This document shows positions 2,979 through 61,586 of a DNA stretch of 64,000 nucleotides, in pieces. Within the stretch, counting starts at the first letter, position 1. Each line of letters starts with the position of its first letter. The notes under the pieces are model-generated. The model was not told the origin of the DNA. It did not search any database and was given only the letters and a program-made list of their open reading frames with translations. The DNA lies in NCBI GenBank assembly GCA_012441205.1, contig GCA_012441205.1_4705.1, one strand, 5' to 3'. This DNA is from a phage. Both the position numbers and the translations under genes were made by a program.

Positions 2979-2995
2979 TATTCACTGCATAAACC

Positions 2996-3027: not shown

Positions 3028-3033
3028 ATTATG

Positions 3034-11213: not shown

Positions 11214-11221
11214 CATAATAA

Positions 11222-11257
11222 CCCACCCTACTACCCCGTTAAGGGCGGTAGGGTGGG
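11222..11257. terminator. nested hairpin element between convergent genes
   Basis: CCCACCCTAC-taCCCCgttaaGGGcg-GTAGGGTGGG between 10371..11213 (+) and 11265..11696 (-). Confidence 0.55.
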
Positions 11258-11264
11258 ATAAGGT

Positions 11265-11696
11265 TTATTTGCCGTATAGTTGTACCACTCGTTGTGTCGT
11301 AGGAACGCAGACTCTTACCAGAAGCTTTTTAATCTCCTGACGAATCGTTGCTTTATCATCATAATAAAGCCATGGCGGAACGCGTTGCATTATGCACTGC
11401 ACGGCTTCATCGTAGTTCGTCGTCTCATTAAGTAACGTCTCACTATCCAGATCTTTCCATGCAGTAATACCAAGTCGCGCAGCAAACATCAACGCTGAAA
11501 CCGACTCAGCTATCTCCAATCGCTCATTCATATCCGCAAGACCTTTTAGCATGATGTAATTATCGTCATGCTGGTGCAGGGTACCATACAAACTTCCGAA
11601 GAGAAGTATGCGTTTAGCTTTTGCGGTTAAGAGGAACGATAGGAGAGCGTGTTTCAACGGTTGTTTCTCACGTTCTACCTGTTCGACCATCACCAT
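11265..11696 (-). CDS. hypothetical protein
   Basis: 143-aa ORF. Confidence 0.5.
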   Translation of the reverse strand: MVMVEQVEREKQPLKHALLSFLLTAKAKRILLFGSLYGTLHQHDDNYIMLKGLADMNERLEIAESVSALMFAARLGITAWKDLDSETLLNETTNYDEAVQCIMQRVPPWLYYDDKATIRQEIKKLLVRVCVPTTQRVVQLYGK

Positions 11697-13882: not shown

Positions 13883-15223
13883 ATGATTAGTATTTTTGGT
13901 TTTTATACGTACAAAGGGTACGCTAATAACCACCCAAAAACCACGGCGAAATTCGGTGAGTTCAGTCAGCACAGTGCTACGTTCAGTCGCGAAATCGGCA
14001 TCTATACCAACACGGCGTACGCACGTACGACCTTATTAGTGTTGAATGCCGAAAACGAAGCTGGTGAAGCACAAACGCTGAATGACGACACCGCAGGCCG
14101 CATTCTTCAGGTTGGTCAATGGTTGCTGGAAAAAGCCTCATCAGGCGAAATCCAGGATGACCGAGACCAGGTTATCGGCTACCTAAAAGACGACTTCACA
14201 ACGTATCTGGATTCTATCGACATCCCAACACCCACCACCGATGGTACCGTCTATCTACCGGCGTGGATCAGTTTCAAGATAACCGCCACCGGCGATGTCG
14301 TCAAGATTTGGTTGTCTGATAGCGTATTCCAAAGTCAATATCCAAAATACGAATATGAAGTCGTTCCCCCTGTTCCTAAGGATCAGTTAGATACCTTCTT
14401 CGAAGATCTGGCAACATTGAAGAAACTGGTTGACAGTCGAAGCAGCGAGAAACTGACCGAAGAAATCAACGAGGTGCGCGACCAATTCCCAGACACACAA
14501 TTGTGGACGAAAACATATAAAGCGTACGATTACACCGACGATTCGAAATATATTAATACCGATTGGACGGTGATTATCTACGGTGCAGCAGGTAACAACA
14601 TTGATAATATCAAGGAGTTCCTGCAAAACTGGATTCTTAGCAATAGCACGCACGGACGTCCAGACTGGGAAATCGTTCTGCCGGATCTTTTTATTCCGAC
14701 GGAACACATCTTCATTCCAATCTGGAACCGCCACAGTGCGCCAGAAATGACCAATCAGGCACGTATCTATAGTCCTATATTCGATGATTCGTTGATGGAT
14801 ACCTACCTGAAAAACTTTGCTGATGGTTACGGCGAAACCGCCGAAGTCCGTAAATCGCTTCAAGCGGTGCCGACGTTGTGGCGCTCGATCGGTTTCTTAA
14901 GCGTTGGTAACTCACGTAACCGAGACGGTAAACTTAAGTTCTACGATCGTTGGCCGCAATACGCGCTCATCAGCACAACCAGCATCGATATTAACCGTAT
15001 CGATGATGCGACACGTGAATTCATCACGTTCACTTACGAAATGCTGAAACTGGCAGAATCGCTGACCGAAGACGACCCGGTACCGTTGGGTTATAGTCGT
15101 GTTACGCGTGGTAGCAATAGCTTCTTAGCGAAAAGCCACAACGATGTTCAGTATCTCTTCTTAACAAAAGAAGCGTTCCTGAAGAAAATGCCGGATGAAG
15201 CCGACACGCCTGTTGGAGGTTGA
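13883..15223 (+). CDS. hypothetical protein
   Basis: Track ORF 13847..15223; ATG at 13883 has GAGGA 6 nt upstream. Antisense ORF 14387..14863 judged spurious. Confidence 0.6.
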   Translation: MISIFGFYTYKGYANNHPKTTAKFGEFSQHSATFSREIGIYTNTAYARTTLLVLNAENEAGEAQTLNDDTAGRILQVGQWLLEKASSGEIQDDRDQVIGYLKDDFTTYLDSIDIPTPTTDGTVYLPAWISFKITATGDVVKIWLSDSVFQSQYPKYEYEVVPPVPKDQLDTFFEDLATLKKLVDSRSSEKLTEEINEVRDQFPDTQLWTKTYKAYDYTDDSKYINTDWTVIIYGAAGNNIDNIKEFLQNWILSNSTHGRPDWEIVLPDLFIPTEHIFIPIWNRHSAPEMTNQARIYSPIFDDSLMDTYLKNFADGYGETAEVRKSLQAVPTLWRSIGFLSVGNSRNRDGKLKFYDRWPQYALISTTSIDINRIDDATREFITFTYEMLKLAESLTEDDPVPLGYSRVTRGSNSFLAKSHNDVQYLFLTKEAFLKKMPDEADTPVGG

Positions 15224-15225
15224 TT

Positions 15226-15852
15226 ATGGCTGTAACACGCATGACGCCAAGTCCCGGTGCGGTCGGGGTATTCACAGTATCAGCGCCGTTTACCGTTGGT
15301 GCGTCAACGCTATATACCGTTACAGCGTTGCGAAGATTCAGCGAAGTCATCGGTAGTGGAATCGATCTATTTACGGAACTGTACGAACCGTTATCAATAG
15401 ACAAATCCACATTCGAAGCGCATCTCGAAGCGAATGCTTATCTCGTCACGTTGCAACCGGATTACGGTGCACCCGTACTGGTACCTGATACGTATATCAC
15501 GTCGTACCCAAAGAACGATTCATTGCGGTATCGTCGCATTATTCTGGGTATCGATTTCGGGCCTCTTCCTCCCGGTCTTGACCTTTCGTATTTAACAACG
15601 ATATTGAAAGGTAAGGCCAGTGATATTCTTGGTGTCGAACCTGAAGTTAAAACGATGGAAATCACTCTCGATGATACCGTTACTCAGGAACAACATCAGA
15701 TAAACGAAGCCCGTCGTCAGGCCGCGATAAAAGAGCGAGATACCATATACGCACGTTGTGAAACGCAAGAGAAGCAGATAACGGCTTTACTTGCAACCCA
15801 AAAGCAACTTATCAAATTGCTTCAAGACGCCGGTATCAATCCGACACCTTAA
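15226..15852 (+). CDS. hypothetical protein
   Basis: ATG at 15226 preceded by GGAGG; start overlaps stop of upstream gene. Confidence 0.55.
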   Translation: MAVTRMTPSPGAVGVFTVSAPFTVGASTLYTVTALRRFSEVIGSGIDLFTELYEPLSIDKSTFEAHLEANAYLVTLQPDYGAPVLVPDTYITSYPKNDSLRYRRIILGIDFGPLPPGLDLSYLTTILKGKASDILGVEPEVKTMEITLDDTVTQEQHQINEARRQAAIKERDTIYARCETQEKQITALLATQKQLIKLLQDAGINPTP

Positions 15853-15858
15853 CATATT

Positions 15859-15890
15859 CCCTCCTCCTTCCCTGTTGGGTTGGAGGAGGG
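15859..15890. terminator. nested hairpin element (reverse orientation) between convergent genes
   Basis: CCCTCCTCC-ttCCCtgttGGGtt-GGAGGAGGG; reverse complement is nearly identical to the copy at 43673. Confidence 0.55.
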
Positions 15891-15904
15891 TTATGCTGTC
15901 AAGC

Positions 15905-15920
15905 AAAAAAAAAAAAAAAA
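15905..15920. repeat. homopolymeric A16 tract
   Basis: 16 consecutive A between the hairpin and the stop of 15966..16667; reads as U16 on the minus-strand transcript. Confidence 0.8.
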
Positions 15921-15965
15921 TGATAGTCACAGGCTCTCCAATGAAGGAGAGCCGTGACCGTCAGT

Positions 15966-16667
15966 TTAAGATGCAGATAATCTCGCGTACTTCTGGCGAA
16001 CATGGTTCTTACGGCGAACTTCGTCGTCCTCGTCGCGCCATTCGAGGTAAGCAACGAATCGACGTAACTGCGCCGCCGTCATCGTTGACGAGCGGTCTTC
16101 TACGTCTAGAACAACGTAACGAACATCACCAACGCCATCGCAATCAACGTAACTGAATACCAAAAGGCCATCGCCGTACTCAACGATGGTAACTTCGAAT
16201 CGTTTATCGAACAAATAAAACAGTTCCGATTCAATGATCATCGGAATGACGCATAAATCAGCACGATTGAGGATTTCCATCATCACCCGTAACGCGCGAG
16301 GAGTATGGCGAGCGAACTGGTCGTTAAAACGTTGTTTCATCGCTTGTTCCACGCCATCTGTTTTTGTTCCAAACCACGGACGTACTACAGATTTCGGTGG
16401 TGTAAGACGAAAGCGATATGCTTGTATAAACAACAGAATATCAGCGACGTTAGGAAATTCTTCCTGGTCTTCGTATATCTTGCGGATAATATCCGGAATC
16501 GTAACCATCAAGTATTTCTTATCGCCTCCCACTTTCTCGAGATTAGCAATATGTCCTTCTACCACAGGCTGGTAAACGAAATTATACCAATGACGGTATC
16601 TTTCAGTACGTTGGTAGTTTGGGATAAAATTAAGAATAATACTCACTGCGCGTTTTAATGGGTTCAT
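15966..16667 (-). CDS. hypothetical protein
   Basis: 233-aa ORF, last gene of the minus-strand block starting at 18392. Confidence 0.55.
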   Translation of the reverse strand: MNPLKRAVSIILNFIPNYQRTERYRHWYNFVYQPVVEGHIANLEKVGGDKKYLMVTIPDIIRKIYEDQEEFPNVADILLFIQAYRFRLTPPKSVVRPWFGTKTDGVEQAMKQRFNDQFARHTPRALRVMMEILNRADLCVIPMIIESELFYLFDKRFEVTIVEYGDGLLVFSYVDCDGVGDVRYVVLDVEDRSSTMTAAQLRRFVAYLEWRDEDDEVRRKNHVRQKYARLSAS

Positions 16668-18438: not shown

Positions 18439-18542
18439 AAAATGTTGGATTAAGTTAAATACCGCAACCGCAGCTAATTTTATAGGCTTTTAGCCTAAAC
18501 CAATCATCTTCGGAATCATCATCTTTGAAACAGGAATCTATC

Positions 18543-19364
18543 ATGGAAAAAGTATTTGTTTGTAAGTTGTTTACCAACGGCAATAGCCAACCAATGTATC
18601 TGACCGATCCTGTTCTAGGTAATCGGAACAGTACCGTATTCAAAGAGGCTTTCGAATACGCTAAAAATAAAGCCGTGAGAACACTGACGTCTGATGACTG
18701 TATCAACGGTATCACGTGGGCAGAGTTAATCGGTGATGCCGTTCGACACTTCGTTCGGGATGCGAGAAAACGGGAAATCTGTCTCACGACTATTGTTGTG
18801 CGTGAAAACGCAGAAATTTTATCAAACGTTTTGGTTGATTTTAATGACGTTTGTGTGTTTAATCCAGAGAACACGTTTGAACAATACCTTACTGCCCTGA
18901 ACAACCAGCTCGGTAAAGATATTCATCCCGAATTCGCCAAGTTAACATATCAGTTACTTTTTGACGACGTCGATCCAAATACGAAGATCGATACCAGCTT
19001 ATCGCCCCTGGTAAAGAAATACGGATCGGTTCTCGCTACGGCAACACCCACCACCGATGGTGGTTATGATATCGAATTGGATGATCCATTAAAAGAACAA
19101 GAGCCTACTGGGGTTAGGGCGGTACATCACAACCTCGTCGTTAAATCTGATGGATGCGATGAACATTACGCTATGATAAACGATGAAAACAATTACCGTT
19201 TAAGTCAAGCGATTGGTGTTCTACGCTATACCGAACCCACTGTTGTAGACGATTATACATCGACAACAACGCACACCACGTGTTTCATTTTCATCTATCC
19301 CAATGAAAGTGTGTACATTACCGACTGCTATGGCAATACCGTAGATAGCTTACGTCGTTATTGA
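18543..19364 (+). CDS. hypothetical protein
   Basis: Track ORF from 18525; ATG at 18543 has AGGA 8 nt upstream. Confidence 0.55.
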   Translation: MEKVFVCKLFTNGNSQPMYLTDPVLGNRNSTVFKEAFEYAKNKAVRTLTSDDCINGITWAELIGDAVRHFVRDARKREICLTTIVVRENAEILSNVLVDFNDVCVFNPENTFEQYLTALNNQLGKDIHPEFAKLTYQLLFDDVDPNTKIDTSLSPLVKKYGSVLATATPTTDGGYDIELDDPLKEQEPTGVRAVHHNLVVKSDGCDEHYAMINDENNYRLSQAIGVLRYTEPTVVDDYTSTTTHTTCFIFIYPNESVYITDCYGNTVDSLRRY

Positions 19365-19370: not shown

Positions 19371-19398
19371 AGCCTGTCCTTCGGGGCAGGCTTTTTAT
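19371..19398 (+). terminator. rho-independent terminator
   Basis: AGCCTGTCC-ttcg-GGGCAGGCT followed by TTTTTA, directly after the stop of 18543..19364. Confidence 0.75.
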
Positions 19399-19473
19399 GC
19401 TGTTAAATATCAGGAATAAGAATTAACAAAATAGGAAAATGGTGTGTATATAACACAAAGGAGGGAGATGATT

Positions 19474-19590: not shown

Positions 19591-19658
19591 AAACACTGTG
19601 TGCATTAGTGTATGACGAGAAATCGTCGAGGCCCCCGTCTTCACGAGGGCCAACACCT

Positions 19659-20009
19659 ATGCATGATTATTCATCGTCTGTTAAACAAAAGGTTATAAAC
19701 ATGAGCAATTTGAACGTTGAATTTACTTCAACAACGCCTGTCATGAATGGTGTTGGCACTGAAACCAAAATCGTATTAGAACCCATTCCAGGGTTACGCG
19801 ATCTCGGTGATTTTTATCCACTGATGCCGCGTATACGGAAGGCCTTAAACAGTATCGATCTTGATTCCAATAAAGATTTCCAACACGATACAGAAAATAC
19901 CGATCATGTATTGCTGCCATCAGGGATCGCAAAATTCACCTACACGCAAACATTGAAAGCCTCTGATGGTGAAATCCGTCGTTTTATCGTTGAAGTAGAA
20001 AGCGCATAA
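19659..20009 (+). CDS. hypothetical protein (start uncertain: 19608 GTG, 19659 ATG or 19701 ATG)
   Basis: Track ORF 19608..20009; internal ATGs at 19659 and 19701 have weak SD-like sequences. Confidence 0.45.
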   Translation: MHDYSSSVKQKVINMSNLNVEFTSTTPVMNGVGTETKIVLEPIPGLRDLGDFYPLMPRIRKALNSIDLDSNKDFQHDTENTDHVLLPSGIAKFTYTQTLKASDGEIRRFIVEVESA

Positions 20010-20013
20010 AAAC

Positions 20014-20045
20014 CATCCTCCCAACCCGTAAGGGAAGGGAGGATG
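20014..20045. terminator. nested hairpin element between convergent genes
   Basis: CATCCTCCC-aa-CCCgtaaGGG-aa-GGGAGGATG with GNRA-type GTAA tetraloop. Confidence 0.6.
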
Positions 20046-20062
20046 AAATATGCCGTTAAACG

Positions 20063-20692
20063 TTATTCAACAAACCCTGCATTCAACAGATTGTCGTAAA
20101 CACGATTAGCGACATCAACAGGAGAATGTGTGTTACTGGTATCTATACGCAGCGTTTTCGCGTCGCCGAGATAGTCCATAAAATCCATGTAACGATAACG
20201 TCGTTTATTGAATGTCGCTTCATCGATGTTATCAAACATCTGATGTTTAGCGTGACGAACACGGAACCGCCTTAAATACGTAGGATAGTCGATATCCAGA
20301 TAAACATAGTAAGACGGCATGATAATCGACGGTAGGTTCGGCAACAATGCGTCAAACAACTTAACGTTGGCATCATTAACCTGATAAACATACGTCGAAG
20401 CAATCGAACGATCGCTAAGCACAGTCTTCCCTTCGTTAAGGGCTGGATGAATCACCTTGTTGAAGAGATGATTACGTTGCGACATCATCGCCAATAGTTC
20501 AGTTTCTGGATCGAATCTGTTCGTTGGTGTCTGATCTTCCAGGATAAGTTTACGAATGGCTTCTCCGTAGAGCGTACCACCGGGTTCACGTACGACACAG
20601 ACGTTGTTTAAACGACTGTGTAAAGACGAGATAACCGAACTCTTTCCTGAATAATCCAGACCTTCAATAACGATATATTTATTACGAGACAT
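20063..20692 (-). CDS. tmk: thymidylate kinase (dTMP kinase)
   Basis: KYIVIEGLDYSGKSS (P-loop), REPGGT, VLSDRSIASTYVYQ match the Tmk motif order; start placed at MSRNKY. Confidence 0.8.
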   Translation of the reverse strand: MSRNKYIVIEGLDYSGKSSVISSLHSRLNNVCVVREPGGTLYGEAIRKLILEDQTPTNRFDPETELLAMMSQRNHLFNKVIHPALNEGKTVLSDRSIASTYVYQVNDANVKLFDALLPNLPSIIMPSYYVYLDIDYPTYLRRFRVRHAKHQMFDNIDEATFNKRRYRYMDFMDYLGDAKTLRIDTSNTHSPVDVANRVYDNLLNAGFVE

Positions 20693-20708
20693 TCCCCGCT
20701 CCAATTAA

Positions 20709-25984: not shown

Positions 25985-27073
25985 ATGAGCGACCTGGCAA
26001 CAGACAATCGCACAAAAGGGAGTCAGCTAGCTCCAGACAACAACGTAAGCGTTTTCCGTATCTATGCCTTGGGTACTGTTGCTGCCGACTTTTCCAATAA
26101 AAGTCTGGAGGAAGATCCTAACCAGACGCTGGAGGTCTTTCTTGATGAGATGATGTCAGGCGCTGATGGGAAAGTTGAAGCGGTGGGAAGCGTTAAAGAA
26201 GTCAGTGCAACAGACGCTCAAGGGAACAGCTATACGGCGAAAGCGGCAACAACAACCAGCATACAGTGTTACTGGTTACCCTTCGGCAGTAACCGGATGA
26301 CAGCACCTAACTTGAGGAAAGGTCAGCGTGTGGTGGTTTGGCGTACCGCGGATGAAGAACAACTCTATTGGCAACCCAAAGGAGGGGATAGCGAGCTGAT
26401 GACCATGGAATCGGTTATCCTCACCGTCAGCGCACGTCCTAGCGCCAAGAAGGACCGTAAATCGATTTCAACGGAAGACTGCTATTACCTAATGGTTGAT
26501 ACCTTCCTCAAGAAAGCGGTTATCGGCACCAGCGCACAGCTTGGTGAAGTTACCCAAGTCTACATGGAACTTAATCTGGACGAGGGTTACCTACAGGTTG
26601 CGGACAGCGTTCATCAAAATCTGTTGTTACTCCATTTTGTCGAGCATATGCTGCGTTATCAAAACCAGGACGACAGCATCATCGACGTGACAAAAAAGAA
26701 CATCACGTTCCAGTGCGAGGATACGCTCAAAGCAATCGCTAAGAACGATATCCGAATGAAAGCAAAAAATATTTATACGGAATGTGAGAACTTTGAACGT
26801 ACCAGCAAAACAGAAAGCGTTACGAGTCAGAATGTTTCTTTGAAGTGTGATCGTTACACCGCGCAAGTATCAGGACAGACCACGTTTAAATGTCCTAATA
26901 CGGTATTCACTGGAGCTGTAAGCTTCACAGGTGAAGACGGAAACACGATGACGTTGAATGGGAACTTCGTACACATCGCAGGCTCTTGGCGTTCACCAAC
27001 CGGAACAAACGTATACACCCACGATCACGGTGGTGTAGATCGTGGTAGCGGTCGTACAGACCCGTTCCAATAA
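25985..27073 (+). CDS. hypothetical protein, possible baseplate central-spike (gpV-like) with His-rich apex
   Basis: AGGAG 8 nt upstream of ATG; C-terminal NVYTHDHGGVDRGSGRTDP recalls the HxH iron-binding tip of P2 gpV / phi92 gp138-type spikes (from memory). Confidence 0.3.
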   Translation: MSDLATDNRTKGSQLAPDNNVSVFRIYALGTVAADFSNKSLEEDPNQTLEVFLDEMMSGADGKVEAVGSVKEVSATDAQGNSYTAKAATTTSIQCYWLPFGSNRMTAPNLRKGQRVVVWRTADEEQLYWQPKGGDSELMTMESVILTVSARPSAKKDRKSISTEDCYYLMVDTFLKKAVIGTSAQLGEVTQVYMELNLDEGYLQVADSVHQNLLLLHFVEHMLRYQNQDDSIIDVTKKNITFQCEDTLKAIAKNDIRMKAKNIYTECENFERTSKTESVTSQNVSLKCDRYTAQVSGQTTFKCPNTVFTGAVSFTGEDGNTMTLNGNFVHIAGSWRSPTGTNVYTHDHGGVDRGSGRTDPFQ

Positions 27074-27104
27074 ACAGAAGAAAAAAAAAAGAAATGCAAT
27101 ACAA

Positions 27105-27139
27105 CCTCCTTCCCTAGCCGTCAAGGCCGGGGAAGGAGG
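27105..27139. terminator. nested hairpin element between convergent genes
   Basis: CCTCCTTCC-ctaGCCgtcaaGGCcgg-GGAAGGAGG, preceded by an A10 run. Confidence 0.55.
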
Positions 27140-27154
27140 ATTATAGTTTATTTA

Positions 27155-27544
27155 TTAACGCGTTGCATTCTGGATGATTTCTTTTCCGATCTTAACCAAA
27201 GCGGGTATCTGTACAGCGGTTGCGCCTCGATGACGAAACGCGGTCGTTAACGCGGTATCGATACTCACCGCACGTCCGTGAAGACGATCGAAATAGACTT
27301 GAGTGATTGCGGTAGCGTAATCCTTTCGCTGTTTCTTGGTTTGGCTCAACAGCGCCGCACTATGACTAACGATGAAGTAAGCGATTAAGAAGAACGCCGC
27401 TGACCGAGAACCAGGTAGAAAACCTTGTCGCTTAGGGAGCATCTCACAATCGCGAACACTATTATCGTTCGCCAGCTCTTCCATATCAACACAGCATAAT
27501 TTTGCATAGGTGTGGAGATAGTGGGTAAAAGTTGAATTTAACAT
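27155..27544 (-). CDS. hypothetical small protein (putative early gene)
   Basis: 129 aa; last gene of the minus-strand array downstream of the 31 kb promoter-like motifs. Confidence 0.5.
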   Translation of the reverse strand: MLNSTFTHYLHTYAKLCCVDMEELANDNSVRDCEMLPKRQGFLPGSRSAAFFLIAYFIVSHSAALLSQTKKQRKDYATAITQVYFDRLHGRAVSIDTALTTAFRHRGATAVQIPALVKIGKEIIQNATR

Positions 27545-30890: not shown

Positions 30891-31717
30891 TTAAAAAGTT
30901 CCTCTGTTTCACGTTAATTAAACAACGTATTGATTTCTATTTGACAGAATACGAACATCGTACGTATCTATCACTTAGGTAACGCTTACGCGTCGCGTTC
31001 ATGATACCATGCATCATGAAGGTAATATAGCCGTGAAAGGATTTGTGTTAACGCAAGGGTTTTGTTTGTTTTTTAAGAAGGGATGGATTTAGAAGAGGTG
31101 TTTCAAGGAAGGTAAACGAGAATAGGTATTTTGATTTAAGTAAGATGTTATCTGTATCCGTTAGAAGTGTATTGTCTAAGTTATCTTGTTTATCTTAGGT
31201 TTAATCGTTTTTATCTTGGTATGTTTAAGTTGTTTTTATTTAACTGTTAAAATGCTTATCTTCAAAACAATGGATAACATGTGTTTACTACGCTCGTTGA
31301 GTTATAACTCAACGGTAACACATGTCATCTGTGCATTACACTACGTTACATGCTAGTTAAATCGGATAACTCAAAAAAACATTTGTGATACTCTTCTTCA
31401 CGTTGTTCATCAGAGTATCTCGTCTATACTCATTGCATTCGTATACGACATAACCGTTACACGCTAACGCTACGCTTATAGCTTGATAACTCTAAGGATA
31501 AAAACATAAACTCGCTTCGCTCGTTTAGTTTTTCTTTTTCTTAGAGTTATCCTGTTGCTCGTCTCTAAAGGACTTCGCTCCTCCCCCGTCCCCCGAAGGG
31601 GCCGAGGTCGTGGAAATTTTACTTTCCAAATACATTTACAACATCTGTAAACTTTTACTCCAGGTACTTAATCTTATCATTAGAAATTATAAAAGAGAAA
31701 ATAAACACAAACATAAA
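30891..31717. other. AT-rich ORF-free region with direct and inverted repeats (candidate origin / promoter cluster / ncRNA locus)
   Basis: About 830 bp with no ORF of 60 aa or more; five TTATCT(T/G) repeats (31150-31260), GGATAAC/GAGTTATC repeats, palindrome CGTTGAGTTATAACTCAACG; no tRNA-like T-loop seen. Confidence 0.5.
30976..31038 (-). promoter_or_regulatory. tandem promoter-like motifs (TTAGGTAACGCTTACGCGTC and GAAGGTAATATAGCCGTGAAA on + strand)
   Basis: Minus strand reads CACGGCTATATTACCTTC; 90-130 bp upstream of minus gene 30108..30890. Confidence 0.45.
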
Positions 31718-31750
31718 CCTTCCCCCGACCCGTAAGGGAAGGAGGAAGGG
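31718..31750. terminator. nested hairpin element downstream of minus-strand gene 31761..32654
   Basis: CCTTCCcccga-CCCgtaaGGG-aa-GGAGGAAGG. Confidence 0.55.
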
Positions 31751-31760: not shown

Positions 31761-32654
31761 TTATTCGGAAACGTTATAACCGAATACTGCTTTACCGTAG
31801 GTGTGAGTACCGTCAGCTAACGACAGCACCAACACATGGTTGTATGTAGCGTTAACGCCTTTATCGGTAGACCCGGTGGTAGCACCGTTATAGACAAAGG
31901 TAGCTGTTTGCAGATTGGTTTTCAGTTCATTGATGATATCATCACTTACACCAGTCTGTTCTTTAATCAGGGTGGTCAGGTTACCCGCTAAGCCTGCATC
32001 GATCTTGGTATCGTTACTGGTAATAGCTTGTAAACCTGCGGTGTAAGTACTGAAGTCTAACGGATAGGTTAACAGACGTGCTGAGGTCTTGGTACCATCG
32101 CCTTCATCAACGTAGGTTAAGTTACCCAGATTGGTAACCTTGATGATGTTAGCCAGATCCAGCGTGGTGTTATAAACTTTAACTTGAACAGAGCCATACC
32201 ACGCCAACGAATCTTCTTTGGCTTCCAGGGTGATCGTCTGGATACCATGCTGGTCGAAGGTAACCGGCGTAGCTAACGTTTCGGCTTTGATGTCTTTCGC
32301 TTTATCCAGGAACTTCTCACCGGAAGGCGTGATCATACCGTAGCGTTGAGCTACAAGGTCAACCACATCACCGATGGTGGTGTTCGCCTCAACGTTAACA
32401 CGTACAGCGATCTTCTGGAACCACTTAGCCAGATCCAGACGATGGTAGGTGACATCTCGGTTATTGAAGTAAGGGGTACCTTCACCAGGACTAAGTGTTA
32501 AAGTTGCTTCTGGAGCAGAAGGATTCTTTTCTTTAAGGACGTATTTAAGGTCGGTATATTTAAAGCTGGCACCAGTGTCAGCGTTAAGCTGGTTGATCTC
32601 ATCAACGATAAGTTGCCAAGGTGTTTTTAAAGTAAGCGATACTTGAGCAGTCAT
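31761..32654 (-). CDS. YYDR-domain paralog family member (structural protein candidate)
   Basis: Internal start MTAQVSL with GAGGAAG SD; shares YHRLDL ... LAWYGSV ... GYNV motifs with 43714, 45536, 46398 and 32794 genes. Confidence 0.55.
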   Translation of the reverse strand: MTAQVSLTLKTPWQLIVDEINQLNADTGASFKYTDLKYVLKEKNPSAPEATLTLSPGEGTPYFNNRDVTYHRLDLAKWFQKIAVRVNVEANTTIGDVVDLVAQRYGMITPSGEKFLDKAKDIKAETLATPVTFDQHGIQTITLEAKEDSLAWYGSVQVKVYNTTLDLANIIKVTNLGNLTYVDEGDGTKTSARLLTYPLDFSTYTAGLQAITSNDTKIDAGLAGNLTTLIKEQTGVSDDIINELKTNLQTATFVYNGATTGSTDKGVNATYNHVLVLSLADGTHTYGKAVFGYNVSE

Positions 32655-32793
32655 TTTCTTCCTCGATAGTTGGTACATCACTCTCAAAAGATGTAAGTGT
32701 TTACAGAAATTAATATATTTTATATTAAATGTGAATATTATGGAGAACGACTCCGAATCTCCTTTTCGACCATCAAAATCAGAGGACACGAAC

Positions 32794-33339
32794 ATGTCTA
32801 CTTTAGACTTTAACAAAGCAGCGAAATCCCTTCTGCTTGATCTTATTAACACCAAAGCGACCCGCACATTGGCTGAAGAAGAACTGCAGTTCGGTACTCC
32901 GCAGGAATCTTCCGAACATGAAAAGAACACCGTTATTCAGCTGGACGCGGCGGCTGAAGCAGCTAACCTGCAGGGTACTCAGCAGTTCTACTACGATCGT
33001 CTGGCTCTGTCTGACGTTTTCGCTGATGTAACTGGTGATGTTACTTTCGAACTGCCGCACGGTACTGACAGCATTCAGGCTTCTGAGCTGGTAAGCAAGC
33101 TGGTCACCAAATTCGGTCTGGCTTCCCTGAATGGTGAAATCAGAGAAGAAACCTTCCAGCTGTCTGCCGGTACTGTTGATGAGGTAATTCTGAATGCGAT
33201 CGAGGGTGGCCTGGTATACACTGGTACTCTGCGAGTTGCCCTGACCTACGCACTGGCACCAAAAGACGAACTGGCAACCGTTCTGGCGAATAACGTAGCT
33301 GAAGGTTTCGAGAAACCGACCGTTAGCGTTGTTGGCTAA
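32794..33339 (+). CDS. abundant small virion protein candidate, minimal member of YYDR-domain family
   Basis: Strongly biased E. coli-like codon usage; FYYDRLAL ... FGLASL ... LVYTGTLRVAL matches the family domain; GAGGA before ATG at 32794. Confidence 0.6.
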   Translation: MSTLDFNKAAKSLLLDLINTKATRTLAEEELQFGTPQESSEHEKNTVIQLDAAAEAANLQGTQQFYYDRLALSDVFADVTGDVTFELPHGTDSIQASELVSKLVTKFGLASLNGEIREETFQLSAGTVDEVILNAIEGGLVYTGTLRVALTYALAPKDELATVLANNVAEGFEKPTVSVVG

Positions 33340-33632
33340 TAAGCACATAGAGCAATAGTATGGGTTTTGTACAGCTCGGCTATTGATCTTCTACAATTTG
33401 GTTGTAACAATCTGCGTGGTTGCACGCTTATCTTTCTCATTGAACGCTTCGTATGAAGCGTGGTGTTGAAAGGGTTGTGGATCTCCTCAAGCGGCCAGGG
33501 ACCCAGACCAACCTGAATAAACACAAACACATGTTAAGCCCCTCCTCATCCGTTATTGGGTGGGGGGGGTCTTATACGTCTTTATGCGTTCCGTTCGTTC
33601 TGGAGCGTTTTAGGACGGTTTATGATGGTGTT

Positions 33633-43662: not shown

Positions 43663-43672
43663 CCAAACATAA

Positions 43673-43704
43673 CCCTCCTCCAACCCGTAAGGGAAGGAGG
43701 AGGG
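43673..43704. terminator. nested hairpin element (archetype copy) between convergent genes
   Basis: CCCTCCTCC-aa-CCCgtaaGGG-aa-GGAGGAGGG: perfect 9-bp outer stem, symmetric AA bulges, 3-bp inner stem, GTAA tetraloop. Confidence 0.65.
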
Positions 43705-43713
43705 AATATGCTG

Positions 43714-44619
43714 TTATGCTACATATAACGTCAGATAACCGTCGATGAGCGTATTCATCACACTGAGTTGAAGTACGACAGCTTTACTACCATCTGTACG
43801 TACACCGAACGGTAGTGTTTTGAATTGCTCTGGATCGGCTATTACTTGCGCATTCTGCAAGTTGAGCGGTCCAGGCATTGCTGACAATACCCAGCGATCG
43901 TTGACCATAAGGCCGTCGATCTCTTCAGAGAGACCCAATTGCAGTGCGTTCATTTCTGCGATTAGTGCCTCCGATTGCGTATCGCCTGAGGTTAGCGTAT
44001 ACCCATCGGTAAGCGATGCCAGAACACCAGCAGATACGAACCAGTTGTACGAAACAATAGCGCCTGGGAGTTTACTGCTATCTCGATCGATGATATAATT
44101 CAACCCAGCCAACATATTGTTGCGAACGAGGTTGTTGAGGTCATTATGTCCTGAGGTTAACTCAACAAGTAACTGACCAACCCATACTTGGTTACCGGGT
44201 TTAGGTGTTATCATAACCTGTATCGGTGACTTGGACTTATCCAGATCCGCGTCGACAATCTCGGTTTTGTTGAGAAGGATACCGTACGTCGATGCTAAGA
44301 CAGGTAGGATCTCAGAGACCTTGGTTAATGCATCTAAGGTTTCGATCTCGATGGGCCAGCGGTGCTGTCCGCCAGACCAGGTACCCAGTTTACCAAGATC
44401 GATGCGGTTATAATAGATGTCGACAGAGTTCACCAACCCTGAACCCGGTTGGGGATGCACGGTTAACTTGCTGTTACGCTTGTACCATGTGCTTTCAGAA
44501 GCCTCACCGATAACCAGTTTATCCAGCGTTACGCCTCGAGCATCGAAATCGCTATGCTTTCGAATCAGCAGAAAGAGGATTTCTTTCGATTCTAACCCCA
44601 GGATTTCACTGTACTCCAT
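43714..44619 (-). CDS. YYDR-domain paralog family member (structural protein candidate)
   Basis: IYYNRIDLG ... VWVGQLLVEL ... DRWVLSAMPGPLNLQNAQV shared with 46398 (DRWVLDDNIAPYNLYNAKV). Confidence 0.6.
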   Translation of the reverse strand: MEYSEILGLESKEILFLLIRKHSDFDARGVTLDKLVIGEASESTWYKRNSKLTVHPQPGSGLVNSVDIYYNRIDLGKLGTWSGGQHRWPIEIETLDALTKVSEILPVLASTYGILLNKTEIVDADLDKSKSPIQVMITPKPGNQVWVGQLLVELTSGHNDLNNLVRNNMLAGLNYIIDRDSSKLPGAIVSYNWFVSAGVLASLTDGYTLTSGDTQSEALIAEMNALQLGLSEEIDGLMVNDRWVLSAMPGPLNLQNAQVIADPEQFKTLPFGVRTDGSKAVVLQLSVMNTLIDGYLTLYVA

Positions 44620-49831: not shown

Positions 49832-52741
49832 ATGAACGATATAAATAAAGGGCGCGTCGCCCTCGAACGTCAAATGAGCAATAATGACGTTGCGAAGGCA
49901 CTCATGAACAAATTTGTCGCTCCTGCTCCGCAGTCACGTCTTTATAATACACGTGATGCGGAAGGAGCGAACGGTCGTTTCGGGTTAGTTGTTCCCGACC
50001 AAATGACGATGAACACGGTTACGCGTGCTACCGCGACAAACATCGAGGATAATAAAAACATCCTCGAGCTGTTCCCTGAACTTAAACGCGTGATGCAGAT
50101 CTATGTTGCCGCGTTGACGAACCCTAACGATCTTAAGACGGTCGAGATGTTTATCGACAGCGAAGATTTCCCCGGCAGAGTCGCAGAAATCGTTCAGCCG
50201 ATGATCGATACCATCGACACGCATTTTAAGAATATCTATAAAATAAAGACGCTTATCCCTCGTATCATCGAAGACGTCTTCTTTATCAAGGGCAGTTATA
50301 ACTTCGTTGTTCTGCCGGAAAGCACGCTCGACCGCGCCATTAATGGTAACGGTCAACTGAAACTTGAAGAATACGGATTTAAAGACAACCATTTTGCAAG
50401 TTGGGGGCTTCTAGGTAACGACAGTCGCAAACGCCACGAAAATCAATTACCTGCGACGGTTTCGATGGAAGATTATTTCTCGGGTGTTAATGAAACCATA
50501 CCGTACGATCCTGTTGTTCGCATAGACAGCATCAAGTTTACCAATACCCTGCTTCGCGATAAGGACGGTAAATTCATTGAAGCGAAGATCGATATTCCGG
50601 ATATGGTTACGGTTGTCGATAACCCAGACATCCTCCGCATGCCTATTCTGCATCAACGTCGAGCAGCGACAGCAGTGCAGCGTGCGTTACGCGCAAACAC
50701 GTTAGGAGGTAGTGGTTTGGTAACGCTGTCAGGCGATCCGACCCTAACCGCTAACCGACGTGAGCTGTCGCAAGAACAGGTTAACGAGATCTGGAATAAG
50801 CTCAACATCCAGCGCCACACCAAGGTATCGCCCGTTTACGCGCTGGCAACCCCAGATACGCTTGATCGTCAAAGCGTTGGCCATCCTGGCGTGATGCATG
50901 TACCACCTGAGGCATTAGAACCCGTACATGCGCCCGGTGATCCTGAGAACCATATCGGGTATTTGGTTCAGTTGGATGAGTTTGGTTATCCAGTACGTTT
51001 GGTTGAAGATGCGGCGTATTACAAGCAGTTGGAAGGTCGGTTGTCGAAGATCACCGCAGATATCGCAGGTACGTCAAGCAACGGCATGGCGAGCGAGATG
51101 ATTGGTGCAGCCAAGAACATGATCCAAGGTACGTCATGTAATCAGGTAGACATGTCGGCCTTCGTATCATCGTACGAATCGCTGATGCAACGTTACATTG
51201 TCGAACGTATCGTTAACGGTTATCTTGGCAGTGCGGTGGAGATCGGTGCGACATCATCGTTTTATCTGTCGATGCTTGCTCGTAGCCTCGCTCACAAGCA
51301 GACCCGTGTTTTGTTTATTCCTCGAGAGATGGTGACTTACATCGCCTATGAATACAACAAATACGGTATCGGTCGTTCGCTGCTTGAAAGTACGAAGATG
51401 ATCTCATCGCAACGAGCCATGCTCATGGTTCAAGAACTGATGGCGAAAATCAAAAGTTCGTTGAACTATACGACGCTAAGCGTAATGCTTGAAGACACCG
51501 ACAGAAACCCGGTCGATACCGTCGAACAAGCACTGCATAGTTTCGCTCGTGTCTACCAGTCTGGTTTCCCGTTGGGTGAAACTAACCCGATGGATATCAT
51601 CAACGCGTACGAACGAAGCTCGATTAGATTGAAGGTTGAGGGGAATAACCCACGCTTCCCGAAATTGAATACAGACGTCAGTGTTGAGCAGCGTAACTAT
51701 CAGTCTCCTGATAATGAGCTGATGGATCGTTACCGTCGTGACCATTTCATGGGCTTGGGTGTGTCTCCGGAGATTATCGATACTTCCTACCAATCTGAAT
51801 TCGCAGCTTCTGTGATTACAGCTAACGCGATGCAAGAGAAACAGTTCACGGTTTGTCGTGAGGTGATCACGAATGGGTTATCGGACCACATCAAGAAATA
51901 TACGGCATACAGTCCCGTGTTGTTGACGTCGTTACGAAACACGGTTCGTGCGAACATGTCTAAGCTTTCCCAGGCACAATTGAAGCAGCTTTTTGGTAGC
52001 GATTTCGAAAACGGTGTTATCCGTAACGTTAACGCCTATCAGGAGATTGACGACCAATCAGCAACAATGGATCTGGATTACACTAAACCAGAAGTCCAGG
52101 AAGTTATTGCCGATGCTTATGTGTCCATGTTCTTAAACAGCCTGCGTGTGCGTTTACCGGATAGCAATGCCCGTCGCCTTGAAGATCAGGTACGTGAATA
52201 TAATCAGTACAAGGAAGCGATTACTGCGCAACTTGATGATTATTTAACGCCTGATTACGTCATGGGTCTGGGTGGGGTTGATGAAACAACGCTGCAGATG
52301 ATCCGCGCATGCATTATTGGTACCGCGATGCGTACGTGGGCAAAAGAGAACAACTTCAATCAGGAGCTGGCTGATCTCTTCAGTCTTGACGATAAGAAGA
52401 ATGCCGTGCAAGATTGGAAACGTATGTCCATGGAACATATTGAAGTCATGGGTAAATGCATGGGTGATTTTGCATTGTATATTCAGAATCTGACGAAGAA
52501 GATTGAAGAGAAGATGGGAGCTCAAGCACAGGACGGTAGCGTTTCATCTGATGGTTCGTGGTCATCCGATTCAAGTAGCGATACCGGTTCTTCTGATGAC
52601 TTCGGTGGCGGTGACGATTTCGGAGATACCGATTTCGATACCGAAACGATGGAGGAAACCTCAACAGAAGAAACAACCACATCTGAGGAAACGACGACCG
52701 ACACAACGTCAGAAGACGACACTTCAGGTGACATTGTCTAA
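49832..52741 (+). CDS. large hypothetical protein (969 aa) with extremely acidic Ser/Asp/Thr/Glu-rich C-terminal tail
   Basis: AAGGAG 9 nt upstream of ATG; last ~70 aa are DGSVSSDGSWSSDSSSDTGSSDDFGGGDDFGDTDFDTETMEETSTEETTTSEETTTDTTSEDDTSGDIV. Confidence 0.6.
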   Translation: MNDINKGRVALERQMSNNDVAKALMNKFVAPAPQSRLYNTRDAEGANGRFGLVVPDQMTMNTVTRATATNIEDNKNILELFPELKRVMQIYVAALTNPNDLKTVEMFIDSEDFPGRVAEIVQPMIDTIDTHFKNIYKIKTLIPRIIEDVFFIKGSYNFVVLPESTLDRAINGNGQLKLEEYGFKDNHFASWGLLGNDSRKRHENQLPATVSMEDYFSGVNETIPYDPVVRIDSIKFTNTLLRDKDGKFIEAKIDIPDMVTVVDNPDILRMPILHQRRAATAVQRALRANTLGGSGLVTLSGDPTLTANRRELSQEQVNEIWNKLNIQRHTKVSPVYALATPDTLDRQSVGHPGVMHVPPEALEPVHAPGDPENHIGYLVQLDEFGYPVRLVEDAAYYKQLEGRLSKITADIAGTSSNGMASEMIGAAKNMIQGTSCNQVDMSAFVSSYESLMQRYIVERIVNGYLGSAVEIGATSSFYLSMLARSLAHKQTRVLFIPREMVTYIAYEYNKYGIGRSLLESTKMISSQRAMLMVQELMAKIKSSLNYTTLSVMLEDTDRNPVDTVEQALHSFARVYQSGFPLGETNPMDIINAYERSSIRLKVEGNNPRFPKLNTDVSVEQRNYQSPDNELMDRYRRDHFMGLGVSPEIIDTSYQSEFAASVITANAMQEKQFTVCREVITNGLSDHIKKYTAYSPVLLTSLRNTVRANMSKLSQAQLKQLFGSDFENGVIRNVNAYQEIDDQSATMDLDYTKPEVQEVIADAYVSMFLNSLRVRLPDSNARRLEDQVREYNQYKEAITAQLDDYLTPDYVMGLGGVDETTLQMIRACIIGTAMRTWAKENNFNQELADLFSLDDKKNAVQDWKRMSMEHIEVMGKCMGDFALYIQNLTKKIEEKMGAQAQDGSVSSDGSWSSDSSSDTGSSDDFGGGDDFGDTDFDTETMEETSTEETTTSEETTTDTTSEDDTSGDIV

Positions 52742-52771
52742 ACGGATGTAAAAAAAATAACACATAGTTAA

Positions 52772-52806
52772 CCTTCTCCCCAACCCGATGAGGGAAGGGG
52801 AGAAGG
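52772..52806. terminator. nested hairpin element between convergent genes
   Basis: CCTTCTCCCC-aa-CCCgatgaGGG-aa-GGGGAGAAGG. Confidence 0.6.
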
Positions 52807-52826
52807 GCTATGCGCTATTTAATTTA

Positions 52827-53099
52827 TTACGAGGTTAACCACGATTCAATTGTGGTGAGTTTGCTTCTCAGTACGCGCCAACTAGGGTGTGGTGGGATCA
52901 CAGCGCCTTTGTCGATTACGGTTAACTGAACCTGGTACTTCTGCTGCATACGCGCTACCGTGTCGCTTATCGAGAGGAAAAGCTGGTAACGTTCATATGC
53001 CGTCAGTTCACTGTCCTGTTGAACTGCGTTGGCCGCTAACGTAATTTCGCGTAAGTCCTTTGCATCCACAGAGACGGTAATGAGTTTATATTGACTCAT
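52827..53099 (-). CDS. hypothetical small protein
   Basis: 90-aa ORF at the 3' end of the 59.2-52.8 kb minus-strand block. Confidence 0.45.
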   Translation of the reverse strand: MSQYKLITVSVDAKDLREITLAANAVQQDSELTAYERYQLFLSISDTVARMQQKYQVQLTVIDKGAVIPPHPSWRVLRSKLTTIESWLTS

Positions 53100-59200: not shown

Positions 59201-59234
59201 TTTTTTCTATTCGCAACAATAAACGGCATAGAAA

Positions 59235-59264
59235 CCTCCCCCAACCCTTGCGGGCTGAGGGAGG
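59235..59264. terminator. nested hairpin element downstream of the 740-aa virion protein gene
   Basis: CCTCCCcc-aa-CCCttgcGGG-ctga-GGGAGG; a second small hairpin CCGGA-tgaatg-TCCGG lies at about 59285. Confidence 0.55.
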
Positions 59265-59363: not shown

Positions 59364-61586
59364 TCAGTTAGTCTGAACAGGCAGCTTGATGTTTTCAGTG
59401 TAGACCTTACGCAGGTTCACAACGTTAATCAGACCCAGCAGCGGGCAGTTGTTAACGAAGCGGCAGCGCGGCTGAACCATGGTTTCTTTAGAAACCTGAC
59501 CGTTACGGGTAACCTGAGCAACAGATACCAGTTCCGGTACATACAGGAACATACCGAAGGTCAGCGGATCCGGAGAACCCTGGATACCACGAGACAGGGT
59601 CACGAAGATCTTATCGCGCAGCATGACGTTCGGGTTATCTACAACTACGAAGTTGAAGCTTACACCAACGGTACGGAAATCACCATCGGTCTGCAGGAAC
59701 TGCGGGATGTAGTTGTCAGTTGCTACTACGCAACGCGGTTTCTCATCAGCGTTGGAAGACAGCAGCTGCAGAGCTGGCTGATAACCAGACTCGGAGTACA
59801 TGCGGTATGCCATCTCACGAATCACGTTCATGATCGCAGCAGACACTTCAGCACGACGTTCTGCAGTGGTGGTACCCTGAACAGATTTCTCCAGGTCCAG
59901 ATTGATTTCTTCGAACCACGGACGGATCAGGTAACGACCGAAACCTTCGATCTGGATGTCACCGAACTGACGGAAGCGAGAGGTCGCAACCGCTTTCAGT
60001 GCGTCTTTGTAGCTGAACAGTTTCTCAACCATCAGGTTGTCGAAACGTGCGTTAGCAGCTTGGATCAGAACGTCCAGGTCAGCAGCGTTTTCTTCCCAAT
60101 CCAGCGGACGAGGAATGGAGAACGGAGCCAGCAGGCCGATTGCGTAACGTTCTTGCTTCATGTTGAAGTCAAGGTGCTTACCGCGCTCACGACGGTTGCT
60201 GTTGTTACGGCGGATACGCAGTTCGTAACCAACCAGTTTGAAGCTCAGGTCTTCAGCCAGTTGTTTGAACTCTTCGCTCTTACGCGGTTGTTCGATGTTG
60301 TCCTGATCAACCAGGCGATACAGTTCAGCGTTAGCGCCGTTAACACGCAGACCGGCTTTCTCTACGTTGGAAGAACCGTAAACTTCGATCGCCAGCTGAG
60401 CAGCAGATTTCGCATCGATGATGTCCTGCAGCGCTTCAGCTTTCGCGCCTTTAACGTCTTTGGTGTTCTCATCAACGAAGATGGAGTGGGTGTCGAACGC
60501 CAGGGTCATTTTGCGGAAGTCGCCTTCCAGGGATTTCTGGAAACCGTTGGTGATCAGACCAGATACGTCGAACGGTACGTAAGAGGTTTTGCTGTGCTTG
60601 GTAGATTTGATTTCCACCAGGATTTTGGTCAGCGTGATCTGGGCGTCCAGCGCGTCGGTGTTGTCGCTGTAACCGTTAGCCAGGATGCTATCGTCTTCAG
60701 CAATACCGATCATGTCGATCAGTTTATCAACAGCCAGGTAAGACGTTTTGTAAGTTACGCCTTTAATTTCGATGTCGCGCGGAGCAACGATAGCTTTGTC
60801 AACGAAGTACTGTGCGTTAGCATCGTCAGCACGATAGATCGGATGCAGATCGGTCACGTCGTTGGACAGAACGTCGTTGTACATGAACGCATCCAGCAGC
60901 GGACGACGTACCCAATCAGCCGGAGTACCGTCAGCGTTACGACGCAGGTGGTTGAACACCAGCGGACGACGGAAAGATACGTCGTAACCGATCTGGTTCG
61001 GAGCCAGAACGATGGTGTTGTACAGTTCGTTACCCATGCGGCTCAGACGAGAAGCCTTCACGTTGAACACAACGGAGTACGGCATCATGTCACGCAGTTC
61101 TTTCTGGTCGTAGGACAGCTGAACCAGTTCTTCAGATTCGCAACCGCAGGAATCAGCAGCCATCATGACGAAGTTAGAGCTGTCAACTTCACGGCCAGAC
61201 GGAGTGGTGCTGATGTTCATGGAACGTGCTTGTTTAGCATATTCTACCGGGTTACCATGAGCCAGCATGATCAGTGCTGCTGCACGAGCCTGCTGTGCGT
61301 TCATGGTGAACAGCTGTTCTTCAATACGCTGCTTCTCTTCCGGAGTGGTGGTTTCGAAGCCCAGCATGGACAGAACCGGTTCTTCGGCTTTACGGATGTC
61401 GCTGCTGAAGCTCTTAACATCCATTTCGTTAACCAGTTTGTCCATGGATTTGAAATCAACCTTAGAAGCAGATTCCATAGACAGGAAGGTGTTCTCCAGA
61501 CCTTTGTCTGCTGGTTTGCTACCATTAGCGGTCAGGAACTGGCGAGTGGCCGCGACCTGTTGGCTAAGAAGGGTTTTATCATTCAT
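59364..61586 (-). CDS. highly expressed 740-aa virion protein; candidate major capsid protein of a jumbo phage (tail sheath not excluded)
   Basis: Strongest codon-usage bias in the window; size matches phiKZ-type capsid proteins (~740-750 aa, from memory). The antisense 766-aa ORF on + strand is a shadow ORF. Confidence 0.45.
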   Translation of the reverse strand: MNDKTLLSQQVAATRQFLTANGSKPADKGLENTFLSMESASKVDFKSMDKLVNEMDVKSFSSDIRKAEEPVLSMLGFETTTPEEKQRIEEQLFTMNAQQARAAALIMLAHGNPVEYAKQARSMNISTTPSGREVDSSNFVMMAADSCGCESEELVQLSYDQKELRDMMPYSVVFNVKASRLSRMGNELYNTIVLAPNQIGYDVSFRRPLVFNHLRRNADGTPADWVRRPLLDAFMYNDVLSNDVTDLHPIYRADDANAQYFVDKAIVAPRDIEIKGVTYKTSYLAVDKLIDMIGIAEDDSILANGYSDNTDALDAQITLTKILVEIKSTKHSKTSYVPFDVSGLITNGFQKSLEGDFRKMTLAFDTHSIFVDENTKDVKGAKAEALQDIIDAKSAAQLAIEVYGSSNVEKAGLRVNGANAELYRLVDQDNIEQPRKSEEFKQLAEDLSFKLVGYELRIRRNNSNRRERGKHLDFNMKQERYAIGLLAPFSIPRPLDWEENAADLDVLIQAANARFDNLMVEKLFSYKDALKAVATSRFRQFGDIQIEGFGRYLIRPWFEEINLDLEKSVQGTTTAERRAEVSAAIMNVIREMAYRMYSESGYQPALQLLSSNADEKPRCVVATDNYIPQFLQTDGDFRTVGVSFNFVVVDNPNVMLRDKIFVTLSRGIQGSPDPLTFGMFLYVPELVSVAQVTRNGQVSKETMVQPRCRFVNNCPLLGLINVVNLRKVYTENIKLPVQTN

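Follow-up and report, generated by a model that had tools for sequence, protein, structure and literature searches.

Hairpins followed by a TATG-C-Y-G-T box at gene 3′ ends of a Goslar-like jumbo phage: probable Chimalliviridae-type transcription terminators, bidirectional at convergent junctions

Between two convergent phage genes, 42382..43662 (+) and 43714..44619 (-), lies a nested GC-rich hairpin at positions 43673-43704, and hairpins of similar build recur at other gene 3′ ends in the window (the whole 64,000-nucleotide stretch of DNA under analysis). The question raised by this locus is what such a repeated structure does. The original prediction read the family as a phage-specific bidirectional terminator or an RNA-processing or stability element. 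The reading favoured here, with a probability of roughly 0.8, is that the hairpins are transcription terminators of the Chimalliviridae type, which depend on a hairpin, have no long U-tract and act bidirectionally at convergent junctions; for the window phage, termination would follow from homology in sequence, structure and position to terminators mapped in related phages.

The window belongs to a close relative of Escherichia phage vB_EcoM_Goslar, with an identity of about 96-97%. The 4 kb around the 43673 element are 96.5% identical to Goslar, the element itself is the same in both phages, and the whole window is colinear with the circularly permuted Goslar genome at 92-98% identity. A nucleus-forming jumbo phage, Goslar has multisubunit RNA polymerases of its own, and Goslar-type phages are a main E. 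coli model in phage-nucleus biology. The polymerase genes lie outside the window, and membership among such phages is read from the Goslar GenBank record, in which several phiKZ-like homologues of the RNA polymerase beta and beta′ subunits are annotated. The same record attaches the label 'putative transcriptional terminator' to the orthologues of window elements 43673, 27105, 11222, 33539 and 19371. The ends of this record share 55 bp, at window 15866-15920, and its break falls inside hairpin 15859-15890, beside an A16 run; the overlap looks like an assembly circularisation overlap and not a biological terminus.

All nine hairpins of the original prediction were located at the coordinates claimed, and RNA folding predicts a strong hairpin for each on both strands (dG -20 to -35 kcal/mol, z -2.7 to -7.4). 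In every copy the stem-loop is GC-rich, its 5′ arm being rich in C/Y and its 3′ arm in G/R. A covariance model, R1, built from 17 Goslar-lineage copies recovered these nine sites and no others in the window at E<0.01, and found about 26 loci across the whole Goslar genome. Polypyrimidine 7-mers with their reverse complement within 30 nt occur at 7 window loci (19 overlapping windows), against 0.13 windows expected and a maximum of 2 in dinucleotide shuffles. When 15 distinct window and Goslar copies are compared, 9/9 pairs of the outer stem covary with changes on both sides; 97% of the alignment cells are paired, a value equalled in 0/500 shuffles and nowhere approached when the register is slid. 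An Rfam scan of the whole window returned no match at the gathering threshold.

The general fold consists of an outer A/U helix (CAUA/UAUG), a C/U-G/A stem of 6-11 bp, a small internal loop and an inner helix of three pairs, CCC/GGG or GCC/GGC, and is departed from by the sense strand of 59235, which forms a continuous 15-bp stem. The plan of AA / CCC-tetraloop-GGG / AA that had been proposed for all copies applies strictly to six, whereas 52772 has a pentaloop, and 11222 and 27105 have 1x1 internal loops with loops of 6 and 5 nt. The claim of three identical cores has to be reduced to two, since the 16-nt AACCCGTAAGGGAAGG is exact only at 20023 and 43682, and 31727 has one mismatch (GACCC...). 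Three family-related members, 33539-33569 (+), 4141-4166 (-) and 19371-19392 (+), were absent from the earlier list. The elements are as follows, with dG in kcal/mol and with the box, a TATG-containing sequence that adjoins the hairpin, given for each strand on which it occurs.

2984..3039, unstranded: putative bidirectional terminator element; hairpin 2996-3027, CCCTCTCCC TT CCC TGCT GGG TT GGGAGAGGG; boxes ATTATGTT at 3028-3035 (+) and GGTTTATGCAGT at 2995-2984 (-); between convergent genes 837..2978 (+) and 3034..4101/4152 (-); dG -30.8 / -27.6; covariance model 57 and 52 bits; core inverted relative to the Goslar orthologue.
4131..4166, - strand: element assigned to the same functional class, with another stem sequence; hairpin 4141-4166, then TTTATGCCGT; between tandem - strand genes; differs from the 3′ half of the phiKZ motif by 1 mismatch.
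11206..11257, unstranded: element; hairpin 11222-11257, in which a 1x1 internal loop separates the 11-bp outer stem from an inner CCC/GGG helix; box TTATTATGTT on the - side only, the + side being A/U-rich; between convergent genes 10371..11213 (+) and 11265..11696 (-); covariance model 21 bits, E 5e-4.
15847..15899, unstranded: putative bidirectional element in TT orientation; hairpin 15859-15890; boxes TTATGCTGT at 15891-15899 (+) and AATATGTT (-); 3′ of gene 15220..15852 (+); dG -29.3 / -28.3; model match at E<0.01.
15916..15953, - strand: canonical terminator outside the family; hairpin 15932-15953 (stem to 15926-15959), then U16; ends the - strand gene 15966..16667; dG -28.2, z -9.6.
19371..19403, + strand: element assigned to the same functional class; UUCG-loop hairpin 19371-19392 with a sense-strand G.U pair, then TTTTTATGCTGT; 3′ of gene 18525..19364 (+); dG -18.0 (+) vs -11.4 (-).
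20002..20056, unstranded: putative bidirectional element; hairpin 20014-20045, CATCCTCCC AA CCC GTAA GGG AA GGGAGGATG; boxes AAATATGCCGT (+) and GTTTTTATGCGC (-); between convergent genes 19608..20009 (+) and 20063..20704 (-); dG -26.5 / -29.0; core exactly inverted in metagenomic relative B.
27095..27150, unstranded: element; hairpin 27105-27139, its outer stem of 11 bp followed by a 1x1 loop and GCC-GTCAA-GGC; TATAG in place of TATG on the + side, and on the - side TATTG in the window and TATAG in Goslar; between convergent genes 25985..27073 (+) and 27155..27544 (-); dG -28.4 / -29.7; covariance model 25.6 bits.
31707..31749, - strand: putative unidirectional element; hairpin 31718-31749, box TTTATGTTTGT at 31717-31707; would serve the - strand gene 31761..32930; dG -20.1 (+) / -21.9 (-).
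33539..33590, + strand: diverged member; 13-bp stem with G.U pairs, CTTATACGT next and TTTATGCGT after it; 3′ of gene 32731..33339 (+); folds well on the + strand only, dG -28.2 (+) vs -17.6 (-).
43663..43714, unstranded: the element from which the question arose; hairpin 43673-43704, CCCTCCTCC AA CCC GTAA GGG AA GGAGGAGGG; boxes AATATGCTGT at 43705-43714 (+) and TTATGTTTGG at 43672-43663 (-); dG -26.8 / -30.7; covariance model 69.8 bits.
52760..52816, unstranded: putative bidirectional element; hairpin 52772-52806 with 10-bp arms, AA, CCC-GATGA-GGG, AA; boxes GCTATGCGCT (+) and TTAACTATGTGT (-); between convergent genes 49832..52741 (+) and 52827..53099 (-); dG -31.9 / -35.0; model match at E<0.01.
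59223..59264, - strand: putative unidirectional element; continuous stem with G.U pairs and a GCAA loop, then TTTCTATGCCGT at 59234-59223; 3′ of the major capsid gene 59364..61586 (-); dG -31.3 on the - (sense) strand and -21.4 on +.

The position of these elements relative to genes is that of a transcript end. In the window they lie about 7-30 nt past stop codons, and a family member is present at 8 of the 9 convergent junctions. That most copies lie between convergent genes, as had been proposed, holds for seven of them; 59235 stands between tandem - strand genes, and 31718 faces a gene-free stretch. That stretch, window 30891-31717, spans ~830 nt, is A/T-rich and without gene annotation in Goslar, and includes numerous words resembling TTATC as well as a C-rich hairpin near 31573-31603; window 30454-31013 is a part without alignment to Goslar. 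The sole convergent junction of the window that lacks an element is at 5874-5971, where the two genes, which correspond to Goslar_00237 and Goslar_00238 as orthologues, overlap by ~98 nt. On the Goslar genome, which is about 94% coding, 43 of the 49 polypyrimidine/polypurine hairpin loci are intergenic, with the upstream stop codon at a median of 15 nt (15-18 across counts) and the next start at 62 nt (range -12 to 275). By an automatic gene call an element occupies 14/28 convergent and 24/189 tandem junctions of Goslar, and 18 Goslar elements are in convergent contexts once four contexts are corrected to the GenBank annotation. The phiKZ type of placement, just 3′ of genes and with bidirectional copies at convergent junctions, is thus found here as well.

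Canonical intrinsic (Rho-independent) termination does not describe the family. With a U-tract defined as at least 5 T in the 8 nt right after the stem, plus an upstream A-tract if bidirectional, a scan for hairpins followed by a T-run calls none of the copies, in agreement with the earlier observation that they lack a long U-tract; in window 40-60 kb, 43673, 52772 and 59235 all went uncalled, and TATG boxes flank the hairpins instead. The description of the elements as something other than canonical intrinsic terminators is accurate in this respect, although they would still be hairpin-dependent and intrinsic-like. Bacterial bidirectional intrinsic terminators use one symmetric GC-rich hairpin for both converging transcripts, with an upstream A-tract and a downstream U-tract; the window elements share the symmetric hairpin, whereas their flanks are CATA and TATG boxes that the canonical scan leaves uncalled. 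Matches to sigma-70-like promoters are scarce in window 40001-60000 (14 vs 29.8 +/- 5.0 in shuffles), and both this depletion and the silence of the canonical scan are consistent with transcription under the phage's own control. The canonical U16 terminator of a - strand gene sits 40 nt from family element 15859, which follows a + strand gene, and that convergent junction would therefore be served by two different terminator types side by side. Intergenic window hairpins at 798, 17702, 28968, 40101 and 53119 have no box, which indicates that the box-bearing type is not the only terminator class.

The sequence that follows the hairpin is conserved and oriented. In Goslar, TATG lies within 14 nt of the hairpin in the sense direction on 40 of 54 sides, against a background of 4%, at a spacing of mostly 1-7 nt with a mode of 2 nt; the count for antisense sides is 10 of 32, several of which were later recognised as mis-assigned sense sides. 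Anchoring the Goslar sequences on TATG yields the consensus W-T-TATG-C-Y-G-T-T. In eight of the nine window copies at least one sense side has TATG within 8 nt, the exception being 27105, and no box is present on the + sides of 11222 and 31718. The palindromic flanks 'CATAA...TTATG' noted earlier are real, and arise at convergent junctions because the box occurs on both strands; they are better described as a conserved TATG-C-Y-G-T box on each strand. Hairpins 4141-4166 (-) and 19371-19392 (+) have unrelated stems and an identical type of box.

Folding is also strand-dependent. Among one-directional Goslar elements, folding favours the sense strand by more than 4 kcal/mol in 6/22, owing to G.U pairs, and the reverse is true of 0/22; the same sense-strand advantage is seen at window 59235, 33539 and 19371. 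Relative to Goslar, the substitution at 31718 gives a G.U pair on the - (sense) strand and a C.A mismatch on the + strand, and the substitutions at 33539 likewise are G.U pairs in the sense RNA and C.A mismatches on the other strand. Because G.U pairs favour the sense strand, the element works as RNA.

Terminators of this appearance have been mapped in two relatives. In phiKZ, ONT-cappable-seq identified 61 terminators with the motif 5′-BCCYCCCCHWWDGGGRRGGBYTTATKYYGT-3′ (Putzeys et al. 2024, PMC10914365). The same study places six overlapping regions of bidirectional termination between convergent genes. In 201phi2-1, motif A (n=59 terminators) bears a strong resemblance to the phiKZ motif, a combination of motifs A and B elongates the hairpin, and 15/132 mapped termination sites were assigned as bidirectional; eight terminators were strongly active in vivo in a two-reporter trap, and the 201phi2-1 versions stop the host RNA polymerase in vivo (PMC11512511).

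The window elements and the phiKZ motif have in common a C/Y-rich 5′ arm, a G/R-rich 3′ arm, no long U-tract and then TTAT-K-Y-Y-G-T, as well as a location at gene 3′ ends with bidirectional copies at convergent junctions, where phiKZ has CATAA-hairpin-(C)TTATG just as the window does. The 3′ half of the phiKZ motif occurs at 9 window sites (2.6 expected), with 7 matches at six terminator hairpins, and window 15882-15899, GGAGGAGGG-TTATGCTGT, agrees with the phiKZ description in arm and box. Model R1 in turn matches hairpins at gene 3′ ends in phiKZ and 201phi2-1 with E from 2.5e-6 to 1e-2. The two groups differ in that phiKZ stems are simple (about 7 bp and a tetraloop), whereas in most window copies an outer stem of 9-11 bp is joined through an AA/AA or UU/UU internal loop to an inner CCC-loop-GGG helix, and in the spacer before TATG, which is A/T in the window and B-Y-T in phiKZ. 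The 201phi2-1 elements resemble those of the window in their elongated stems, their bidirectional sites and a post-capsid hairpin followed by TTTATGTTGT, and differ in stem sequence (for example GGCCAGTCC-TTCG-GGACTGGC), a comparison made by locus and not by motif letters.

Syntenic sites in more distant relatives give a similar picture. A strong hairpin followed by TATG(C/T)(C/T)GT stands 3′ of the major capsid gene in the window, phiKZ (CCCTCCC-TTCG-GGGAGGG-CTTTATGTTGT), 201phi2-1, Xoo-sp14, Ea35-70 and RP12, in agreement with the expectation of the original prediction that related genomes would have the element at such sites, and the capsid proteins of these relatives are only 24-34% identical. 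PhiEaH1 and SEGD1 have canonical U-tracts 3′ of the capsid gene instead. TATG within 8 nt of GC-rich hairpins is enriched over control tetramers in all sampled lineages but SEGD1. Window 15891-15911 and the distant Xanthomonas phage Xoo-sp14 (10167-10187, 3′ of the capsid gene) have a 21-nt string, TTATGCYGTCAAGCAAAAAAA, in common; the match runs about 12-13 nt past the box, with the extension GTCAAGCAAAAAA, and occurs once per genome. An exact-core search of viral contigs found Goslar, two close metagenomic relatives and three unrelated contigs. On one of the unrelated contigs, IMGVR_UViG_3300020577_003345 (53% GC), positions 1948-1996 read CCCCC-AA-CCC-GTAA-GGG-AA-GGGGG followed by a U-rich tract, and the nested core is thus found beyond the Goslar lineage too, in what looks like a canonical terminator.

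The box invites a different interpretation, as TATG on the non-template strand is the core of the phiKZ late promoter, where it is bound by the polymerase (PMC4666361, PMC12809450), and the identical tetranucleotide appears in the terminators 1-7 nt past the hairpin. Each element could then end one transcript and begin the next, the post-hairpin TATG acting as a late promoter of the non-virion polymerase with a start at the G as in phiKZ, and antisense RNAs would arise at convergent junctions. Tandem boxes do sometimes lie 30-200 nt upstream of the next gene (window 4131 and 59223, for example), and phiKZ antisense RNAs have been reported (cited in PMC11077065). Such a dual module is nonetheless unlikely: the box is on both sides at 12-13/18 convergent junctions, where no gene is downstream, and the elements follow the upstream stop (median 15 nt) and not the downstream start (-12 to 275 nt). 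The phiKZ late promoters, moreover, have no conserved sequence after TATG and therefore lack the C-Y-G-T that the terminator box adds, and the model promoter P119L has no upstream hairpin. In tandem contexts such a role may exist, but it cannot account for the family in general. The box is taken here to be part of the terminator and not a promoter, because it occurs on both sides of convergent junctions with nothing downstream, tracks stops instead of starts, and has extra conserved positions. A general function in translation initiation, with the 3′ arm as Shine-Dalgarno sequence and the ATG of the box as start codon, was rejected, as it fits only a handful of sites; most box ATGs open reading frames of 2-60 codons, and only 3-5/42 are at plausible gene starts. 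The box ATG is the annotated start of Goslar_00047 (49770-49772), Goslar_00111 (117664-117666) and Goslar_00183 (166922-166924), and at these three genes the purine-rich 3′ arm of the hairpin occupies the Shine-Dalgarno position.

The hairpins might alternatively set mRNA ends by blocking 3′ exonucleases or by being cut by RNase III in their internal loops, as T7 processing sites are, in place of releasing the polymerase. Stable 3′ hairpins are a general means of mRNA protection. T7 RNase III sites have coaxial stems of about two helical turns that include an internal loop, and the window fold is loosely similar to these: with the outer CAUA/UAUG helix, the 9-bp stem, the 2x2 loop and the 3-bp stem counted together, the predicted structure is some 16-20 bp long and contains internal loops. 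Stability or processing would leave the conserved, oriented TATGCYGT box past the stem unexplained, the plain phiKZ stems of 7 bp fall short of what RNase III requires, and the 201phi2-1 elements terminate in the two-reporter trap (PMC11512511). This half of the original prediction is accordingly quite improbable and is not needed to explain the data. Least probable, and very unlikely indeed, is a purely DNA-level role as protein-binding or cruciform sites, recombination hot spots or REP/MITE-like repeats with no function in RNA. The elements are near-perfect inverted repeats, many of them nearly identical, and flipped cores and one replaced element between close relatives speak for hairpin or recombination activity at the DNA level; on the other hand, the G.U pairs of the sense strand are C.A mismatches on the opposite strand, as they would be in any cruciform, the orientation of the box matches gene direction, and three relatives show no presence/absence polymorphism or target-site duplication at the covered sites. 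A comparison of the 54-nt element with 5,426 E. coli genomes gave no match, and a host origin was rejected; a mobile repeat of the REP/MITE type was also rejected, the element being present at every covered Goslar element site in Goslar and in two metagenomic relatives and having no match in the E. coli genomes. The nucleus-associated RNA-binding protein ChmC was considered as a ligand and set aside, its eCLIP peaks lying near start codons with no motif and no link to the hairpins.

Under the terminator reading, the RNA would fold, just past the stop codon, into a GC-rich hairpin whose 5′ arm is rich in C/U and whose 3′ arm is rich in G/A, and the box (T)TATG-C-Y-G-T a few nucleotides beyond it would substitute for a long U-tract. 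Judging from the phiKZ and 201phi2-1 data, the phage RNA polymerase would most likely release the transcript about 7-10 nt past the stem, in or just after the box; the phiKZ 3′ ends at such hairpins could in part reflect exonuclease stalling and not release. At convergent junctions, one near-palindromic hairpin with a box on each strand would halt both transcripts. The arrangement of outer stem, 2x2 internal loop and CCC-tetraloop-GGG would be an elaboration of the 7-bp phiKZ stem-loop in the Goslar lineage. Position, orientation, flanks and the phiKZ box thus all favour the bidirectional terminator without canonical U-tract that was originally predicted, with the correction that it is family-wide in Chimalliviridae and not specific to one phage.

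Comparison of close relatives shows how the elements change. At orthologous sites the 14-nt core can be exactly reverse-complemented, from AACCCGTAAGGGAA to TTCCCTTACGGGTT, with unchanged flanks, as at Goslar 4151, 48107 and 174260 relative to one metagenomic relative and at 63715 relative to another; window 2996 vs Goslar 224384 is a fifth locus with a flip of the same kind and extra loop changes. This flipping accounts for the two core orientations recorded in the original prediction, and suggests that both are functional; template switching or recombination across the short inverted arms is the origin to which it points. The entire element at Goslar 93445 has been replaced, with a double compensatory change in the arms, and between the window and Goslar loops evolve faster than stems. 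In three relatives, the Goslar elements whose orthologous site was covered showed neither presence/absence polymorphism nor target-site duplication. In IMGVR_UViG_3300045988_173921, at about 3450-3950, there is an insertion of ~460 nt relative to Goslar 86760-86798, which contains an extra element with flanks like those of the Goslar 49776 element. Frequent flipping of the 14-nt core might change the strength of termination on each strand.

The terminator kind has already been published for phiKZ and 201phi2-1 and is partly annotated in GenBank, and the family is in this sense largely ordinary. Exact core flipping, unlike the element itself, seems to be a new point, as does the TATG common to the terminator box and the late-promoter core, and these two features together with the nested architecture are the parts that merit follow-up. 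We know of no mechanistic study of termination by phiKZ-type non-canonical polymerases. A speculative possibility, with the odds against it, is that the box is a polymerase-specific release signal, in which the pocket of the beta-like subunit of the non-virion RNA polymerase re-engages TATG and pauses the enzyme, and that flips alter the strength on either strand. If so, the pause would let the hairpin dislodge the transcript without a U-tract, and promoter and terminator would share one recognition element across Chimalliviridae. The outcome of the analysis is a ready terminator map for Goslar-type phages, whose elements, as compact bidirectional insulators, may be of use in phage engineering. 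The conservation of the phiKZ terminator box from Pseudomonas phages to phages of Escherichia, Xanthomonas, Erwinia and Ralstonia argues that it is the phages' own polymerases that read it.
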